Notes: generated by a model from the letters alone, not told the origin. Shown: positions 11,050 through 57,222, counted from the first letter of the stretch. The stretch: DNA of 64,000 nt from Candidatus Falkowbacteria bacterium (GCA_963747695.1 CAVVFV010000008.1:139592-203591), one strand, 5' to 3'. Program-made: numbers and translations.

Positions 11050-11127
11050 TGTTTGGCAGAATAATGGTGATTAGGTACTTAGTCGATTAGGTGCTTAGAG
11101 TATCTTTGATTCTGTTTATGCAAATTT

Positions 11128-11184
11128 GTCCCCTCCTTGGGAGGGGTGCCGATCCCGCCAAGGCGGGAGAGGCGGGGTGGGTCT
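11128..11184. repeat. GC-rich double mini-hairpin element
   Basis: cccctcc-ttg-ggagggg (11130..11146) and tcccgcc-aa-ggcggga (11153..11168), followed by gaggcggggtgggt. A closely similar string occurs inside copA at 53746..53789. Confidence 0.7.
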
Positions 11185-11194
11185 ATTCCTGACA

Positions 11195-11440
11195 ATATTT
11201 TGCAATTTTTTTCTAAAAAAAGTTGCACATCCCGCAAAAATGACGGGACAAGAAAAATCGCGTGCAGGCCTTATTTCCTATCACTCCGCTATCCCGCCGA
11301 GGCGGGACTAGCAAAATCGCTATACTCGTCGGCGCGGCGCCTCCTGCCTACAACGCGATTTTGCACGGTTTCCCTGTCCCGCCAGCGGCGGTGATACGCT
11401 GCGTGATTACGGAAATTTTCCAATGCGCGCTACAAGGATC
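11195..11440. repeat. conserved non-coding element, copy 1 (candidate structured RNA)
   Basis: Shares blocks with 17458..17655 (tttcctatcactccgct, ctcgtcggcgcggcgcctcct, tttgcacggtttc, acgctgcgtgattacggaaattttccaatgcgcgc). Indels between copies break every reading frame. Confidence 0.6.
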
Positions 11441-13025: not shown

Positions 13026-13183
13026 TTGATTAGTTAATTAGTCAATTAGTTGTCTTGTTTTAACAATTTGATAATTTAATTTCCTCAACTAAGTACCTAA
13101 TTAACTAATCAACTAATTCCAATTTTTTCTTGAACAAAGCCAAAAAAAATGTTAAAATATTCGAATAGAGATAAGTTTGAAAT

Positions 13184-14776
13184 ATGAATATTGTCATCGA
13201 TTTAACGCCATTTTTGAATTTTTTCAGCCAATCGCCGGATGTCATCGCCGCCCAGCTGCTTTTTTATTTTGGCTGGATTCCGATTGCCATCACCTTCCTC
13301 TGGGGATCGTTCAAGCTTTGGATTTTTTTTCGCCAGAACCAGTACGCGGCCAAGAACGGCAAATATACCCTCTTGGCCATTGATATACCCCGCGGCAACG
13401 AGCAATCGCCCCGGGCCGTGGAAAATTTATTCGCTTATCTGGCCGGAGCGCACGCCTCCATCAATCTGATCGAGCAATATTACGAGGGAAAATTTCAGAT
13501 GGGATTTTCTTTTGAGATCATCAGTACCGGCGGCTATACCCAATTCTTGATCCGGACGCCCATTCCCCAGCGCGATCTGGTCGAATCCGCCATTTACGCG
13601 CAATATCCGGACGCGGAAATAACCGAAGTTGACGATTACGTCACGCCTTTCAATAATGTCCGATTCCCTAATGATAAATATGAGATTATGGGGGCCGAGT
13701 TCATTCTGTCCCAGCCCAGGGCTTATCCGATCAAGACTTACGAAGAATTTGAACATCAGATGGGAGAGCCGGAAACTCATTTTAAGGATCCGATGGCCGC
13801 TTTGATGGACCTCTGTTCCAGCCTGCTGCCCGGGGAAAATCTTTGGTATCAGATGATCATCATTCCGATCGGTTTTGATTGGATGGAGGAACTGGATCTG
13901 GAAGTCAGCAAGATCTTGGGCGAAAAACCGAAATTCAAGAAAAACATTTTGCATTATGGCGCCGATGCCGCCTTGGGGATGATCTCGGCGGCAGGGAGCG
14001 CGGTGATGGGGCCGACCGAGGCTGTAGAAAAAAAAGTGGAGAAGAAAGATGATGTGCTGAAGATGATGCAGCTGAAACCCAAACAGAAAAAAAGAGTCGA
14101 GGGCATCGAGAAAAAATCCGGTAAAATCGCTTTTCATTTTAAGATCAGGGTAGTTTATCTGGCGGAAAAAGAAATTTTTAACAAAGCCAAAGTTTTTGGC
14201 GGTTTTGTCGGATTTATGAAGCAGTTCGCGGCGTTGGATTCCAATAATTTGAAACCGGATATGGATAAAACCGCGACCACGGCCAACTATTTGTTTCGGA
14301 AGAGCAATCTGAATCGCAAAAAGAATAATATTTTAAAATATTATATCAAGCGCGACGCGACCGCCGGCCGGAAACGCGGCCTGATGAATATCGAAGAACT
14401 GGCGACGATTTGGCATTTTCCGAATATGGGTACGGTTAAGGCGCCGCTGATTCAAATGGCGCCGGGCCGCAAAGCCGAACCGCCGATGACGCTGCCGCAA
14501 GCGGACGAAAGAGTCAGCGAAGAAAAAGCCGAGCCGTTGTTTCTGGGAGAACTGCAGGAAGAAACCGGTGCGGCAATCGGGTCCGCTCCAGCTGCACCTA
14601 ACCCGGAAAAATCAGCCGCTGCCCCGGAAGAACCGGATTTCACCAAGGCTTCTCCCTCTGTCCCGCCCAGCGGGACTGCGGCGGACAAGCCGGCTGACAA
14701 GCCCGAACCGTTTGCCGATGAAGAGCCAACTGATGAAAACCGGGGAGGGCCGCCGGAAAACCTGCCTTTCGTCTAA
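13184..14776 (+). CDS. hypothetical membrane protein (partner of downstream ATPase)
   Basis: 530 aa with an N-terminal TM pair (LLFYFGWIPIAITFLWGSFKLWIFF), a long soluble region and a Pro/Ala/Glu-rich low-complexity tail. Confidence 0.6.
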   Translation: MNIVIDLTPFLNFFSQSPDVIAAQLLFYFGWIPIAITFLWGSFKLWIFFRQNQYAAKNGKYTLLAIDIPRGNEQSPRAVENLFAYLAGAHASINLIEQYYEGKFQMGFSFEIISTGGYTQFLIRTPIPQRDLVESAIYAQYPDAEITEVDDYVTPFNNVRFPNDKYEIMGAEFILSQPRAYPIKTYEEFEHQMGEPETHFKDPMAALMDLCSSLLPGENLWYQMIIIPIGFDWMEELDLEVSKILGEKPKFKKNILHYGADAALGMISAAGSAVMGPTEAVEKKVEKKDDVLKMMQLKPKQKKRVEGIEKKSGKIAFHFKIRVVYLAEKEIFNKAKVFGGFVGFMKQFAALDSNNLKPDMDKTATTANYLFRKSNLNRKKNNILKYYIKRDATAGRKRGLMNIEELATIWHFPNMGTVKAPLIQMAPGRKAEPPMTLPQADERVSEEKAEPLFLGELQEETGAAIGSAPAAPNPEKSAAAPEEPDFTKASPSVPPSGTAADKPADKPEPFADEEPTDENRGGPPENLPFV

Positions 14777-14857
14777 TGAAAAATGAAAAAGTCAAAATAC
14801 AAAAGTATTGAAAAAATACATTAATTTTTAATTTTGAGATTTACATTTTAAAATAAA

Positions 14858-16633
14858 ATGATTAACAGCGAGATAACTACATTTGCTGAGACCACCTTTC
14901 GTAACAGAAAGATCAAGTTCGGCATCAAAACCGACGACCGCCGCCGTCATATGTATTTGATCGGTAAAACCGGCATGGGCAAGTCGACGATTTTGGAAAA
15001 TATGATCGTGGCCGATATCCGCGCCGGGAAAGGCGTGGCGGTGGTCGATCCGCACGGCGATCTGGCCGAAAAAGTGATGCAATATATTCCCACCGAGCGG
15101 ATCAAAGATATCATTTATTTCAATCCGACGGATACGGAATTCCCCATCGCTTTTAATATCGTGGAAGCGGTAGATATCAAAGTACGGCACTTGGTCGCGT
15201 CCGGATTAGTCGGAGTCTTCAAAAAGCTTTGGGCTGATTCCTGGGGGCCAAGATTGGAATATATTTTACGTAACGCGATTTTGGCGGTTTTGGATTATCC
15301 CAATTCCACTTTGCTTTCGGTAATCCAAATGCTCTCCGACAAAGCTTATCGCAAAAAAGTCATGGCCGAGGTCAAGGATCCGGTGGTCAAATCTTTTTGG
15401 TTGAAAGAATTCGCCAGCTATGCCGACAAATTCGCCTCCGAGGCGGTCTCACCGATCCAGAATAAAGTCGGCCAATTTTTGTCGAGCTCGCTGATCCGCA
15501 ATATCGTCGGCCAGACCCGGTCTTCGATCGATGTCCGCGCGGCGATGGACCAGGGAAAAATTTTGATCTTGAATTTGTCCAAGGGCCATATCGGCGAAGA
15601 TAATTCGGCGCTTTTGGGCGCGATGATGATCACCAAGATCCAGCTGGCGGCGATGAGCCGGGTCGATATTCCCGAAAAAGAAAGAAAAGATTTTTATCTT
15701 TACATCGATGAGTTTCAGAATTTTTCGACCGAATCATTTGCGACGATCCTTTCCGAAGCGCGGAAATACCGGTTGAATCTGATCATCGCCCACCAATATA
15801 TGGAGCAGCTGACCGACGAAGTCAAGGCGGCCGTGTTCGGTAACGTCGGCACCCTGGTCGCTTTTCGCGTCGGCGCCGTTGATGCTGAGGAGTTGGTCAA
15901 GGAATTTACGCCAATCTTCGAGGAAGAAGACATTCTTAATTTGCCCAAGTACGAATTTTATATCAAATTAATGATTGATGGCGTGGCCTCATCGCCTTTT
16001 TCCGCGCGCGGGTTGCCGCCTTTGTCCGATGAAGAGCGAACTAATAATTTGCAGAAGGCGATTGACTGGACGCGGCAGACGTATGCTAAACCGCAGAAGG
16101 AAGTGGAAGAAGAGATTATGAGGATTCATTTTGCCGAAGAACCGGCTAAGCCGCCGGTAACCCCGGGGAGGGAAATCAAGTCGGCAGCGGATATTCCCCG
16201 GCCAAGTCCGGTATTGCCGAAAGCCGAACCCCGGGCCAAGCCGAAAGCGGGCGGAATTTTGTTTGATGCCAAATGCGCTTCTTGCGGCAGTCCGACCAAA
16301 GTTCCTTTTAAACCCGATCCGAGTCGGCCGGTTTATTGTAAGAATTGCTTATCCGAATTAAAAAAGAAAAAGCGCGATGGCGTCGTCGATCGTCCCGTCA
16401 AGAAAGACCGGATTGATCTTTCCCGAATTTCTCCTTCGACGCTGCTGGCGCGGGGAGCGGTGTCTACCGGGGCGAATGAGGAAGGTTACGTTTCGCTGGC
16501 CAAGCTGAAAGAAACCGGCCTGTCCAATTTTGCCCGAAAACCTAAAGTTGAAAATAATCCTCCGCCAGCGGTTGAAGCGTCGAAGAATCCGGAAAAAGAT
16601 CTGGCCGAAGGCGAGGATATAATATTCGAATAG
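14858..16633 (+). CDS. P-loop ATPase of the TraD/VirD4/HerA-like kind with C-terminal zinc ribbon
   Basis: Walker A LIGKTGMGKST and Walker B FYLYIDEFQNF. C-terminal CASCGSPTKVPFKPDPSRPVYCKNC. Confidence 0.7.
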   Translation: MINSEITTFAETTFRNRKIKFGIKTDDRRRHMYLIGKTGMGKSTILENMIVADIRAGKGVAVVDPHGDLAEKVMQYIPTERIKDIIYFNPTDTEFPIAFNIVEAVDIKVRHLVASGLVGVFKKLWADSWGPRLEYILRNAILAVLDYPNSTLLSVIQMLSDKAYRKKVMAEVKDPVVKSFWLKEFASYADKFASEAVSPIQNKVGQFLSSSLIRNIVGQTRSSIDVRAAMDQGKILILNLSKGHIGEDNSALLGAMMITKIQLAAMSRVDIPEKERKDFYLYIDEFQNFSTESFATILSEARKYRLNLIIAHQYMEQLTDEVKAAVFGNVGTLVAFRVGAVDAEELVKEFTPIFEEEDILNLPKYEFYIKLMIDGVASSPFSARGLPPLSDEERTNNLQKAIDWTRQTYAKPQKEVEEEIMRIHFAEEPAKPPVTPGREIKSAADIPRPSPVLPKAEPRAKPKAGGILFDAKCASCGSPTKVPFKPDPSRPVYCKNCLSELKKKKRDGVVDRPVKKDRIDLSRISPSTLLARGAVSTGANEEGYVSLAKLKETGLSNFARKPKVENNPPPAVEASKNPEKDLAEGEDIIFE

Positions 16634-16792
16634 TTAATTAGTTAATTAGGTACTTAGTTTTCTTATAATTTGATTTATCATAGTAAATTAGCGTAATCTT
16701 ACTGGAAAATGTTTTTTAATTAATTTGATAATAAATAGTAGAACATTCTAATCTCTAGTCAACTAATTAACCAATCAACTAATCGACTAACT

Positions 16793-17452
16793 ATGAGTTT
16801 TACTCATTTTTTTAGTATCAAGAATATCGTGGATACTTTCGCTTTATTTTACGTCAACGATTATCCTTTTTTGATGATGGTTTGGAATTTATTTTTGGCT
16901 TTGATACCTTTCGGATTGTTTTTGCTATTTTCTTCCTATTGGCAAAAAACCAAATTTAAAAAAAGCGGCCAAAAAATTTGGGCCGTAATAATTTTTTTGT
17001 TTTGGTTTATCTTTTTGCCCAATGCCGCTTATCTGGTGGTGGGCAACCGCCATCTGCTGAATTTCTGCCCGGCCGACTCGCCGAACAGCGTTTGCGTCCC
17101 GGGAACCTGGCAGATAATGTTCTTTTTTGTCTATAGCGTTTTAGGCTGGGTGCTGTTCACTATTTATTTAGTCCAGATGCGGGAACTGTTGGCGAAGATT
17201 TTCAACCCTAAAATATCGCGCAATTTGATCTATATTTTTATCCCCTTTGTCGCTTGGGCGGTGCTTTTGGGTTTGATCGAGCGTTACAACAGTTGGGATA
17301 TCTTTATCAATCCCTTGGCAATTTCGGCTAATCTGCTAAGCTATTTTACTGATTGGGATTATTTCCGCAATTGGCTGGTTTTCACCGCCGGCTACTATAT
17401 ATTATACATTTGGGGAGAACTGTTGTTTAGAAAAAAAATCAAGAATGGTTAA
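16793..17452 (+). CDS. polytopic membrane protein, DUF1361-like
   Basis: 219 aa with 5-6 TM. ERYNSWDIFINP resembles the conserved R-x-NSWD motif of DUF1361, from memory only. Confidence 0.55.
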   Translation: MSFTHFFSIKNIVDTFALFYVNDYPFLMMVWNLFLALIPFGLFLLFSSYWQKTKFKKSGQKIWAVIIFLFWFIFLPNAAYLVVGNRHLLNFCPADSPNSVCVPGTWQIMFFFVYSVLGWVLFTIYLVQMRELLAKIFNPKISRNLIYIFIPFVAWAVLLGLIERYNSWDIFINPLAISANLLSYFTDWDYFRNWLVFTAGYYILYIWGELLFRKKIKNG

Positions 17453-17457
17453 TGAGT

Positions 17458-17655
17458 CAATATTTAAATATCTTTGCCACTTTTTTTAGAAAAAAGTGGC
17501 GGAAAAAATCGCGCGCTGGACAAATTTCCTATCACTCCGCTAAGAAACCTAGCAAATTTCGAACTCGTCGGCGCGGCGCCTCCTCAGACAACGAAATTTG
17601 CACGGTTTCAACGCTGCGTGATTACGGAAATTTTCCAATGCGCGCAATAAGGAAA
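17458..17655. repeat. conserved non-coding element, copy 2 (candidate structured RNA)
   Basis: Paralogue of 11195..11440 that lacks the GC mini-hairpins of copy 1. Stems gccacttttttt/aaaaaagtggc (17476..17500) and gcaaatttcg/cgaaatttgc (17552..17561 / 17592..17601). Confidence 0.6.
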
Positions 17656-17747
17656 ACAATTTATAACCGAGACGAAATTTAAAAATTTTACAAAAAAAAG
17701 AGTTTGACGTCGGCCAAACTAATTAACTAATCAACTAATCAACCAAA

Positions 17748-46284: not shown

Positions 46285-46452
46285 TTAATGCGTTAAATAA
46301 TTTTGCCACTTTTTTTAAAAAAAGTGGCAAAGATGTTGCTATAATCGCAATAATAAAAATTAATTTATTTGTTAGATAAAAATATTGCGTTTGGCTAAAA
46401 AATATTCAGACTAAGTACCTAATTAACCAATTAACTAATCGACTAATCCACC

Positions 46453-47172
46453 ATGATCGAGTGTAAAAATATTTATAAATCATATGAGAACGGCGGCGTC
46501 GTCACCGAAGTCTTGAAAGATATTTCTTTTAAAGTAAAAGACGGCGAGTTTGTCGCGATCACCGGCCCGTCCGGTTCCGGCAAATCAACGATGATGCACA
46601 TCATTGGCGCCTTGGATACTCCGACCAAAGGACAATATCTTTTGGACGGCATCGATGTTTCCACTTTGTCCGATGATAAGTTGGCGGCCATCAGGAATTC
46701 CAAGATTGGTTTTGTCTTTCAGGCTTTCAATCTTTTGTCGCGCGCCACGGTTTTGCGCAATGTAGCTTTGCCCTTGGTTTATGCCAATATTCCCAAGCCG
46801 AAGCGCGAAGAAATGGCCAAGCGCGCCCTCCTGCAGGCTGGTTTGGATGAATCACGTTTTTATCATTTATCCAATCAATTGTCCGGCGGGCAGATGCAGC
46901 GCGTGGCCATCGCCCGTTCGCTCGTTAATGATCCGTCGATTTTATTGGCTGACGAACCGACCGGTAATCTTGATTCCAAAACCGGCGATATCGTGCTGGC
47001 AACCTTTCAAGAATTAAACAGAAAGGGCCGTACCATAATTTTGATCACCCATGAGCCGTATGTCGCTGAACATGCCGATCGGATCATTATGGTTAAAGAT
47101 GGAAAAATTGTGAGCGACGGCGCGAATCACCAGAAGAGAGTGCTAACTAAGATTACCGATGATGAAACTTAA
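46453..47172 (+). CDS. ABC transporter ATP-binding protein (MacB/LolD-like)
   Basis: Walker [10 protein letters not shown], signature [13 protein letters not shown] and Walker [12 protein letters not shown]. Confidence 0.85.
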
Positions 47173-53016: not shown

Positions 53017-55365
53017 TTAATCCCGATAAATCCTCAAGCTATTGCCGATGACGGTGATGTCGGAAAGGATCATCGCGAAGGCGGCGACGATCGGATTGGC
53101 GATGCCGAAGATGGCGAGCGGAATGGCGATGACGTTATAGAAGAAAGCCCAAAATAAATTTTGGCGGATGATGCCGAAAGTCTTGCGGGCCAATTTGATC
53201 GCTTCGACGATTTTGATCGGTTCATTTTTCATAATAATGATATTGCCCGCCTCTTTGGCAATATCGGCGCCCGCGCCCATCGCGATGCCCAGATCGGCCT
53301 GCACCAAGGACGGCGCATCGTTGATGCCGTCGCCGGCAAAGACGACGTTTTTACCGGTATCCTGCAGTTCTTTGACTTTCATTGCTTTGTCAGCCGGAAG
53401 AATTTCAGCGAAGAAATTATCGACGGCTAAAAGCGAAGCGGTAAAATGGACGGCGGCTTCCCGGTCGCCGGAAATGATAATCGAACCGATGCCCATCTTT
53501 TTCAGATTCCAGACCGCTTCTTCGGCGGTCTTTTTTAATTCATCGCGTAAAAGGAAGGCGGCGATGACGCGGTCAGCTTTGGCTAAGAATAATAAGCTGC
53601 CGCCTTCATCAGCTTTTTCAGTGCTGATTTTTTCCGCCCAGCCGGCGTCGATTTTATTTTCCGCCAACAATCTCTGGTTGCCGAGAAAGTATTGTTCGCC
53701 CGCATAATTCCCGCCGATTCCCCTTCCAGGGTATTCAGTAATATTCCCCTCCGCGGGAGGGGTGCCGAGCCCGACGAGGCGGGGTGGGTTTCCGAAAGTT
53801 GCCGGCGGAATATCTCCCGGCGGACAGCCTTCGTCGTTCGGCATCTTCTTCAAAGCCGGCAATTCGCCGCCGGCTCGAAGCGGAAAATTATCAGCATCCT
53901 CTTTGTTGATTTGGCAGAATTTTTGATCACCCGTCGCATAAATGGCAATGGCGCGCGAAAGGGGATGAGTCGAGCCCGAAGCCAGATTAGCGGCGATTTT
54001 TAGGACCTCATCTTGATCATAATTTTCGGCCGGAATTATTTCATATAATTTCGGCTCGCCCAAGGTGAGCGTGCCGGTCTTATCAAAAACCACGGTATCT
54101 ATTTTTTGCGCCCTTTCAAAACTTTCGCCATTCTTGATGAGTATTCCTTTCTTGGCGCCGACACTGGTGCCGACCATTACCGCAATCGGCGTGGCTAGAC
54201 CCAAGGCGCAAGGGCAGGCGATGATCAAAACCGTCACGGCATTGATGATGGCAATGGTGAAATCGTGTCGGAATAAATACCAGCCGATAAAAGTTAAAAT
54301 GGCGATACCGATCACTGAAGGCACGAAAATTCCGGAAATCGTGTCGGCTAATTTCTGTACCGGCGCTTTGAACATTTGCGCTTCCTCAACAGTCTTAATA
54401 ATTTTCGCCAAAACCGTATTGGCGCCGGTCTGGGTGATTTTAATTTTCAGTTGTCCATCCTTATTGATCGTGCCGCCAAAGACATTTTCGCCCGGACGTT
54501 TAGCAACCGGCAAGCCTTCGCCAGTCAGCATTGATTCGTCGATATCGGATTGGCCTTCAATAATCGTTCCGTCCAAAGGAATTTTTTCGCCCGGCTTTAC
54601 TAAAGCGATTTCGCCAAGCTGGACATCTTCGACATTTTTTTCAGTCGTCTGTCCAGATTCCCCGACGATCAAGGCTTTTTTAACTCCAAGCTCCATCAGT
54701 TTTTTCATCGCCTCCGAAGCTTTGCCCGAAGTCTTGGCTTCCAGATATTTTCCTAATAAAATTAAAGCGGCGATGGTGGCGGCCGACTCAAAATAGGTCG
54801 GCTTGAGAGCGAAGACCGCCCATAGGCTGTAAAAGAAAGCCGTCAGCGTGCCGAGCGAAATCAGCGAATCCATATTGAATTGCCCGCGAATGATCTGTTT
54901 ACCGGCAGAGCGGTGGAATTGCCAGCCAAAAATAAAAACCACGCAACCGGCTAAAATTATCTGCAGCCAATCCGTATTGGCAATATTTAAATATTTTCCA
55001 GGAATTTCCCACATCCAGATCATCCGGGAAAGCAGGGGAAGCGAAAAGATGATAGCCAAAATCGTTTTATTGCGCCGCCAGTTTCCCCTGGCCATTTCGC
55101 CATGATGCATATGATCGCCCGCCTTGCCCAGCGAAGCTCCGCCGCGGAGCGAAGTTGGGTCTTCAATAACCTTGTAGCCGGTTTTTTTGATCGTCTCTTT
55201 GATTTTTTTCAAATCGATCTTTGCCTCGTCATATTCGACGTAGGCTTTTTTGGTGGCGTAATTGACGTCGGAAGAGATGATCCCCGGCTGTTTTTTCAGT
55301 CCGCGGTCGATGTTCCTCGCGCATGATGCGCAGTCCATCCCGCCGATATTTATAGAAGTTTTCAT
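53017..55365 (-). CDS. copA: copper-translocating P1B-type ATPase
   Basis: 782 aa with N-terminal [19 protein letters not shown] motif [19 protein letters not shown] and GDGINDAP. The nucleotide-binding region carries an atypical insert of about 45 aa. Confidence 0.9.
53746..53789. repeat. GC-rich mini-hairpin element inside copA coding sequence
   Basis: cccctcc-gcg-ggagggg then tgccgagcccgacgaggcggggtgggt. This nearly matches the intergenic string at 11130..11182. On the minus strand it is translated in frame as ..[15 protein letters not shown].. Confidence 0.7.
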
Positions 55366-57124: not shown

Positions 57125-57222
57125 AATCTATTGGTCGTTTAGGTACTTAGTTAATTAGGTACTTAGTGGAACCTTAATTCACGCCCTAAGCGCCTAATCG
57201 ACTAAGTGCCTAATTACCCCTG

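Follow-up and report, generated by a model that had tools for sequence, protein, structure and literature searches.

Intergenic hairpin repeats such as ERIC/IRU, the Correia element (CREE) of Neisseria, BOX of pneumococcus and the REPIN/REP (RAYT) sequences, together with 6S RNA (RF00013) and the paralogous small RNAs FopS of Bacteroidetes and Qrr of Vibrio, are the described systems closest to the element reported here. Correia and BOX families comprise tens to hundreds of near-identical copies with defined terminal repeats and target duplications. Genomes of the Patescibacteria (CPR) are tiny and contain little non-coding DNA, and hardly any regulatory RNA has been characterised in them. In a 64-kb window of Candidatus Falkowbacteria DNA (the whole stretch that was analysed), two look-alike non-coding stretches, copy 1 (11200-11439) and copy 2 (17474-17656), belong to one element family. 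The element is real, conserved, structured and new to catalogues, with no described counterpart in Rfam 15 or in full-text literature searches. The family consists of previously uncatalogued, low-copy structured intergenic elements that are confined, as far as sampled, to one Patescibacteria clade. Each element is, on the sequence evidence, a genuine functional structure whose pairing is preserved by matching mutations.

The pairwise alignment of the two copies consists of long identical blocks, including one of 35 nt, and copy 1 carries three insertions and a few substitutions relative to copy 2. In particular, the window contains the apical 22-mer ACTCGTCGGCGCGGCGCCTCCT exactly twice, where shuffles lead one to expect none. 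The original prediction had placed the repeat and its shared blocks correctly; it had counted indels of 10 and 23 nt, both of which are present, but missed a third of 22 nt, and the three together leave the copies no common reading frame, as it had claimed. Each copy folds as one long hairpin, the rod, with z-scores from -5.9 to -7.5 on the + strand and from -4.7 to -7.0 on the - strand (Table 1). Two stems with compensatory changes had been proposed, and their positions are exact: the first, stem A, is helix P5 of the rod, and the second, stem B (11201-11227 and 17476-17500), is a hairpin, H1. The compensatory changes are strong over five helices with 12-15 homologues, but the stems are not two separate units; they are parts of a rod and a hairpin. 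The T7/A7 palindrome of H1 is found at three places in the window; the third had been described as standing alone, and it is there, but as an H1-only remnant in opposite orientation with the family 5′ flank AACATCTTT on the minus strand. Overall, the window contains two copies and one H1 remnant.

Table 1. Positions of the parts of copy 1, copy 2 and the H1 remnant in the 64-kb window
Feature	Position	Strand	Sequence, score or basis
Copy 1 H1	11200-11227	+	TTGCAA-T7-ct-A7-GTTGCA
Copy 1 GC mini-hairpin insertion, ~23 nt	11227-11249	+	TCCCGC aaaaatga CGGGA; between H1 and linker; missing in copy 2
Copy 1 rod	11260-11430	+	Fold -97.2 kcal/mol, z -5.85; nhmmer E 3.6e-52
Copy 1 P1, P2, P3	Within the rod	+	P1 GCGTGC/GCGCGC; P2 ATTTCC/GGAAAT; P3 ATCAC/GTGAT
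Copy 1 internal loop	11285-11291 / 11396-11402	+	TCCGCTA / ACGCTGC
Copy 1 paired GC insertions	11292-11307 / 11374-11395	+	Indels of 10 nt (around the first interval) and 22 nt
Copy 1 P5 (stem A)	11311-11320 / 11355-11364	+	
Copy 1 apex	11321-11354	+	
Copy 1 conserved tail	11431-11439	+	TACAAGGAT; family alignment A2, flank listing
Copy 2 H1	17474-17500	+	TTGCCAC-T7-ag-A6-GTGGC
Copy 2 linker	17501-17510	+	GGAAAAAATC; A5-6 tract
Copy 2 rod	17511-17645	+	Fold -73.2 kcal/mol, z -7.47; model R1 136.1 bits, E 9e-34
Copy 2 P1 (also P2, P3)	P1 17511-17516 / 17640-17645	+	
Copy 2 internal loop	17536-17542 / 17611-17617	+	TCCGCTA / ACGCTGC
Copy 2 P4		+	GAAACC/GGTTTC
Copy 2 P5 (stem A)	17552-17561 / 17592-17601	+	
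Copy 2 apex	17562-17591	+	
Copy 2 conserved tail	17646-17656	+	AATAAGGAAAA; family alignment, flank listing
H1-only remnant	46305-46328	-	GCCAC-T7-A7-GTGGC; nhmmer E 4e-6; no rod attached

What sets copy 1 apart from copy 2 is mainly small GC-rich palindromes, inserted where they lengthen the rod or add branches to it. The GC mini-hairpins noted earlier in copy 1 are indeed present, as insertions; in the predicted fold they can also pair with one another and lengthen the rod. The 23-nt insertion between H1 and the linker also lies in the orthologous copy at L031:4527-4549 and is therefore ancestral at this site. Because of its insertions, copy 1 scores only 30 bits with the covariance model. 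A Logan contig from the same organism, assembled from short reads (ERR11748453_28519, L001), has its first position at window 17616, inside the shared 35-nt block, likely because the repeat is longer than the assembler's word length, so that such elements would often lie at contig ends in public assemblies.

The element had been taken for a two-copy repeat, and it is instead a family with members in several Patescibacteria genomes and in metagenomes. Searching with an exact 21-mer taken from the 3′ arm retrieved 13 metagenome contigs, which together with 3 Patescibacteria MAGs make up the known members; a genome scan with an apical 20-mer gave 16 matches, of which 15 were chance matches in GC-rich genomes and one, in a Patescibacteria MAG, was real. 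The loci that were read contain 15 full-length copies, with two contigs carrying two copies each, as well as truncated ones. A covariance-model search had been proposed alongside the original prediction. Further homologues do exist, as the k-mer searches found, but the rod covariance model R1, which leaves out the apex, adds no further copies, either to those of the window or in 202 kb of related loci.

Elements are 180-300 nt long (typically ~190), and all full copies in alignment A2 have the same plan: a flank (A)ATCAAMATCTTT, H1 (a 12-bp A/U-rich hairpin on the 5′ side), a linker GCAAAAAAYC, helices P1 to P5, an apex and the tail TATAAGGAAATTTATT, also written AAGGAAAUUUAUU in the conserved architecture. 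On one side only, the conserved unit includes H1 and ~12 nt preceding it. The linker has an A5-6 tract in every copy, with invariant A in columns 69-73 of A2, and on the minus strand this tract reads as U5-6 directly after the rod. The rod itself, ~55-60 bp in five helices and closed by GCGCGC/GCGCGC, is interrupted by a bulged C, a 1x3 bulge (U / UAC), an 8x8 loop (UCCGCUAW / WACGCUGC) and a 2x2 loop. The 8x8 mismatch loop is invariant and pyrimidine-rich, and contains three conserved internal Watson-Crick pairs, while the apex varies from 20 to 130 nt and has stems of its own. Two types of arm occur, one with AAATTTCC-T-ATCAC/GTGAT-TAC-GGAAATTT and the other with AAATTTTGG-GACGC/GCGTC-TTA-GCCAAAATTT; they are different in sequence, have the same helices and the same loop, and coexist on contig L024. 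Moreover, two copies (L020b and L031) are chimeras that combine a 5′ arm of type I with a 3′ arm of type II, and three others (L027, L029 and L033) have lost their 5′ or 3′ halves.

The alignments show a conserved architecture, its compensatory upkeep and purifying selection on the sequence. In 12 intact rods, 96.8% of 502 cells pair, compared to at most 52% when the partners are slid, and 11 pairs have double changes, compared to 4.2 +/- 1.5 in shuffles (0/500). When H1 and all 15 copies are included, 94.6% of cells pair (at most 57% when slid), with 12 double-change pairs versus 3.6 in shuffles. For example, the GC part of H1 covaries as GCCAC/GTGGC, GCAAC/GTTGC and GCTAC/GTAGC, with four double changes at column pair 20-40. 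Further, copy 2 is 86% identical to its counterpart at L028:8365-8566 and 87% identical to an inverted copy in L036, where four-fold sites in the flanking genes are 48-50% and 55% identical, respectively, and the rest of the spacer does not align. The element is far more conserved than these neutral sites, and therefore both its pairing and its unpaired loop sequences are constrained. Substitutions between copies are compensatory rather than synonymous, and a protein-coding gene was rejected, as no open reading frame is conserved across the three indels, the variable apex and the compensatory changes.

Known RNA families do not account for the element. At the gathering score, Rfam 15 recognises only two tRNAs in the window, and its hits to the copies at E<=10 are sub-threshold noise over the flanking terminators and H1; ARAGORN likewise finds two ordinary tRNAs elsewhere in the window and no tmRNA. 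The earlier judgement that this is not a known RNase P, SRP RNA, tmRNA, 6S RNA or riboswitch is borne out at both thresholds, and the Rfam comparison yields no known repeat that would explain it. Full-text literature searches found no description of such an element in Patescibacteria. Individual candidates were rejected on specific grounds: 6S RNA has no match at E<=10, and in place of its large open bubble the element has an 8x8 loop in the middle, with three Watson-Crick pairs inside it; SRP RNA would need a conserved apical domain IV, which is missing; the likeness of GUCCGAAG to the Ro site of Y RNA is found in one apex subtype only and at the wrong end; and no reverse transcriptase, as expected of a retron msr-msd, lies nearby.

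As the analysis works from sequence alone, we infer the strand, the ends and the transcription of the element. The + strand RNA appears the more likely active form, if weakly resolved: the 12 intact rods have 481 Watson-Crick pairs, 5 G.U pairs on the + strand and 0 A.C. A hand tally that adds the apex stems and H1 gives ~10 wobble pairs for the + strand versus 5 for the - strand (3 A.C in apex stems, 1 in H1), and a first cell count of 28 G.U versus 9 A.C was discarded because terminal pairs, chimeric copies and shared ancestry had inflated it. The gene context also bears on the strand. About 11 of 21 copies are co-oriented with the next gene and lie 10-95 nt upstream of its start codon, and 18 of the 21 share the orientation of at least one neighbouring gene. 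Several genes start so close to the tail that their transcripts must include the + strand of the element; at L018, L024a, L026, L028 and L030, a promoter outside the element would not fit before the next start. In addition, 7 of the 21 copies face a convergent gene, and 3 intact ones (L023, L024b and L036) run antisense to the genes on both sides, which counts against a + strand leader. Degenerate copies (copy 1 with its three insertions, L031, L027 and L029) are mostly located between convergent genes and intact copies mostly upstream of genes.

We tentatively prefer the reading that the element would act as + strand RNA, a portable leader or intercistronic module that offers a protein-binding or processing site. 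The module might be transcribed with the next gene, or from an AAAnAT box just upstream of it. H1 would then be a 5′-proximal clamp, and the rod with its invariant mismatch loop could be a docking or processing site for a dsRNA-binding protein, such as RNase III, which once docked would define the termini of neighbouring transcripts and how stable they are. In reverse orientation, the rod and U5-6 may act as an intrinsic terminator, which would explain the orientation bias. The apex would be a site where expansion is tolerated and where the small GC-rich palindromes scattered through these genomes have inserted. No partner protein was identified. The downstream genes (encoding a glycosyltransferase, pyruvate kinase, Mrr endonuclease, LTD/PKD surface protein, macro-domain protein and HAD hydrolase) are functionally unrelated, so the element is not a pathway-specific leader, and it counts against the module that any benefit of acting on unrelated genes would be hypothetical. 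The tail's AAGGA was considered as a Shine-Dalgarno sequence and rejected, as it lies 17-95 nt from start codons in a genome mostly without such sites. Upstream of most window start codons (e.g. 7955, 22828, 48657, 51942, 9259 and 61240), Shine-Dalgarno sequences are mostly absent, and many leaders instead have short periodic repeats (CAATATAA, GTATTCGC and AATTAAAA).

The flanking terminators point another way. Copy 1 and its L031 orthologue lie between two terminators, like a stand-alone unit, and copy 1 would therefore need its own promoter; the empty L036 site has a single terminator, and in L025, L021 and L020b a terminator is situated just outside the tail. These arrangements fit independent small-RNA genes, with 2 to ~10 paralogues per genome, whose rod would act in trans, for example by sequestering a protein at the loop, which is possible but unlikely. 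In a minus-strand version, the tail would supply a -10 box (TAAATT), transcription would start at the rod base, and the rod and U5-6 would terminate it. Accommodating this version, the minus strand folds better in 14/14 copies, by 1-11 kcal/mol (typically 5-9), with loop mismatches that are G.A rather than Y.Y; its basal GCGCGC stem is followed by (GA)U5-6 after a gap of 0-2 nt in all copies; and TAAATT (the reverse complement of AATTTA) lies ~8 nt upstream of the rod in ~12 of 20 copies. The plus strand is without a U tract after the rod, its tail being UAUAAGGA, and a terminator scan with a loop limit of 8 nt made no call on the rod. Deep conservation and low copy number (0 further matches in 64 kb, and in ~200 kb of related loci only those at the two known sites) would also suit small-RNA genes. 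However, wobble within the rod is 5:0 in favour of the + strand, and H1 would fall outside a minus-strand transcript although it covaries. The flank listings contain no conserved -35 box on either side of the element, and AT-rich -10 look-alikes are found at both ends. Many copies are truncated, chimeric or lost in close relatives, and at five loci the next gene begins 9-40 nt from the tail, too near for two divergent promoters to fit between them.

Comparison with relatives, whose syntenic loci were found through homologues of the flanking DUF1361 protein, indicates that the element is present, absent, inverted or truncated at orthologous sites. Site 1, after the Big_13 gene, holds a copy in the window and in L031, and none in L035, L036 or L045. 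Site 2, between the DUF1361 and glycosyltransferase genes, is occupied in the window and L028, holds a truncated copy in L033 and a complete, inverted one in L036, and is empty in L031, L035 and L045. The genes between copies 1 and 2 (13184-17452) encode a DUF8128 protein, a TrwB/VirD4-like ATPase with a treble-clef zinc finger and the DUF1361 protein; this cluster is core and syntenic in L028, L031, L035, L036 and L045, with or without the element. Relatives' DNA that was sampled independently of the element (~78 kb from L038-L041 and L045) contains no copies. The empty sites, the lack of further matches and the half-lost or chimeric copies together indicate a family that is low-copy, individually dispensable and decay-prone.

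This patchiness, and the clustering of copies within 2-6 kb of each other, direct or inverted (in the window, L020 and L024), would be expected of a non-autonomous DNA element of the REPIN, ERIC or MITE kind, whose arms would be kept as a single-stranded DNA hairpin or for one transposase, with RNA structure as a by-product. Several further features resemble such an element: the rod arms are long imperfect inverted repeats around a variable centre, as in a MITE; chimeric copies exist; an abundant GC-rich palindromic repeat nests in the element in the same genomes; and wobble is found on both strands once the apex stems and H1 are counted (~10:5). Nevertheless, a mobile origin seems rather unlikely. 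No two of the few copies are near-identical, and the compensatory differences between the two window copies require long divergence under selection. The rod-arm repeats do not appear to be terminal, since the unit includes H1 and its upstream nucleotides, which lie outside the inverted repeat and always on just one side of it. Conservation is higher in the non-complementary loop and bulges than in the stems, and both arm types have them in identical form, unlike decaying terminal repeats. Inspection of the listed flanks, which are AT-rich and in which the boundaries are fuzzy, revealed no target-site duplication; no locus contains a transposase, and no Y1 transposase is found in the Pfam lists of 8-20 kb pieces per genome. 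Phage, plasmid and viral collections had no match to the element. Moreover, copy 2 and the inverted L036 copy have the same unusual P5/apex junction (P5 AAUUUCG-AACUCG), which suggests their common descent and argues for vertical inheritance.

The palindrome of H1 raises the question of a double-stranded DNA site, namely an operator, cruciform or recombination site, in which H1 would be a TTGCCAC-N14-GTGGCAA protein site and the rod a substrate for inversion or recombination. The two half-sites of H1 form a perfect palindrome and are spaced by about two helical turns, one of the orthologous copies has the opposite orientation, both strands fold, and the H1-only copy lies just upstream of an extended -10 box. 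This box (TGcTATAAT, with TATAAT at 46342-46347) follows the palindrome at 46305 on the + strand, upstream of an ABC ATPase gene at 46453; the spacer 46305-46347 has no counterpart in relatives. However, changes in the H1 half-sites are compensatory (C-G to A-T or T-A) and thereby alter the recognition sequence, the rod tolerates wobble and not A.C, the conserved asymmetric bulges and loops would be meaningless in duplex DNA, and no recombinase gene is nearby, which make a DNA site very improbable.

The original prediction had also proposed a switch-like fold, in which an upstream segment competes for the 3′ strand of stem A, and this part has no statistical support. The linker AAAAAUCGC can pair with the P5 3′ strand in 86% of cells, and three copies change both sides, but the helix is not above shuffles (67/500) and was rejected. 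A ligand-sensing or switch-like riboregulator is also at odds with the unrelated downstream genes, the copies between convergent genes or antisense to their neighbours, and the lack of an expression platform at a fixed distance from start codons; it is hardly credible. Somewhat bolder, and quite improbable, is the model that the rod could be the RNA subunit of a clade-specific ribonucleoprotein, with the invariant mismatch loop and the bulge docking a dedicated protein and the exchangeable apex, which differs even between orthologous copies, as a functional and possibly specificity-giving module instead of junk, such that the paralogues would be a small set of RNAs that are programmable or carry cargo.

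Other repeats are found in the same genomes. A mini-palindrome, TGTCAT(T/C)CCCGCGAAGGCGGG(A/G)ATCCAG, resembles the ATTCCC-N8-GGGAAT (dRS3) repeats of Neisseria; it occurs in L020 (~200-330), where two inverted copies are nested in the apex of L020a and replace the 3′ strands of P4 and P5, and in L027 (~1230-1260), where one copy lies upstream of H1. A second repeat of 45-75 nt, CCCCTC-nnnn-GAGGGG-TGG-[variable GC hairpin]-CGGGGTGGGTT, often then TATTCCTGACAWTATT, is much commoner than the hairpin-rod element; a regular expression finds 18 copies, 2 in the window (11130-11183 and 53746-53790, both +) and 16 in ~190 kb of related loci (L018, L025, L027, L028, L031, L035, L036 and L040 among them). 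At five loci it is found immediately upstream of the hairpin-rod element; at site 2 in L035 it is alone, and it has no Rfam match. The copy at 53746-53790 is in frame inside a P-type ATPase gene (ORF 53017-55365, - strand), as is another in L040 (9220-9267); its 15-residue translation falls in a linker for which the L038 orthologue has a shorter, unlike sequence. Such an in-gene GC-rich repeat is reminiscent of the Rickettsia palindromic elements, which insert into coding genes.

Further, arrays of 3-5 units of the 8-nt motif CTAAKYRM form pairs that bracket intergenic spacers, with the forward copy abutting a start codon and the inverted copy following the preceding stop. They are found at 11067-11098(-)/11499-11545(+), 13026-13049(-)/13089-13120(+), 16634-16657(-)/16763-16786(+), 57143-57166(-)/57186-57217(+), 17719-17742(+) and 46411-46450(+). 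The pair at site 1 is predicted to form a ~35-bp stem enclosing the whole element, while that at 16628-16795 has a weak predicted stem (z -1.96). L045 has a different 8-nt motif, GGTATTTG, in the same arrangement.

If the element is an RNA, it would be a lineage-specific RNA with a putative protein-docking loop in organisms about whose gene regulation next to nothing is known. As a mobile hairpin, it would instead reveal repeat dynamics in genomes thought too streamlined for them, with the GC-rich palindrome as a second example. In either case, the covariance model and alignment provide a direct handle for genome surveys and metatranscriptomes.

Similar to ERIC/IRU, the element is an intergenic imperfect palindrome of 100-plus nt that forms a long hairpin on either strand, occurs in both orientations, has longer variants by insertions at fixed internal positions, and is patchy at orthologous sites; a modest copy number in some genomes is also shared. 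However, it has no sequence similarity to ERIC/IRU, belongs to another phylum and combines a one-sided, covarying H1 with invariant asymmetric loops; no TA target duplication was seen, and its copy number is apparently much lower. With Correia/CREE and BOX, it shares a modular build with a variable middle and outward promoter-like boxes that can be present, and would also share co-transcribed dsRNA hairpins as possible RNase III targets and orientation-dependent effects on neighbours; the differences are its few diverged copies with compensatory substitutions, and that terminal repeats and target duplications were not seen. REPIN/REP sequences are likewise intergenic hairpins from two inverted arms with compensatory pairing, but their arms are 20-40 nt, compared to ~60 nt here, and the present element is low-copy, has conserved mismatch loops and has no RAYT in the fetched loci. 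Unlike 6S RNA, it occurs in several copies per genome, some of them truncated, and its apex is variable, although a putative rod RNA of 150-190 nt with paired ends, interrupted helices and a mid internal loop is similar in outline. Finally, the element differs from FopS and Qrr in being almost fully double-stranded, with no evident conserved single-stranded seed and with a putative promoter and terminator, but it resembles these paralogous small RNAs in having a few diverged intergenic copies per genome, each with a conserved core and variable parts.
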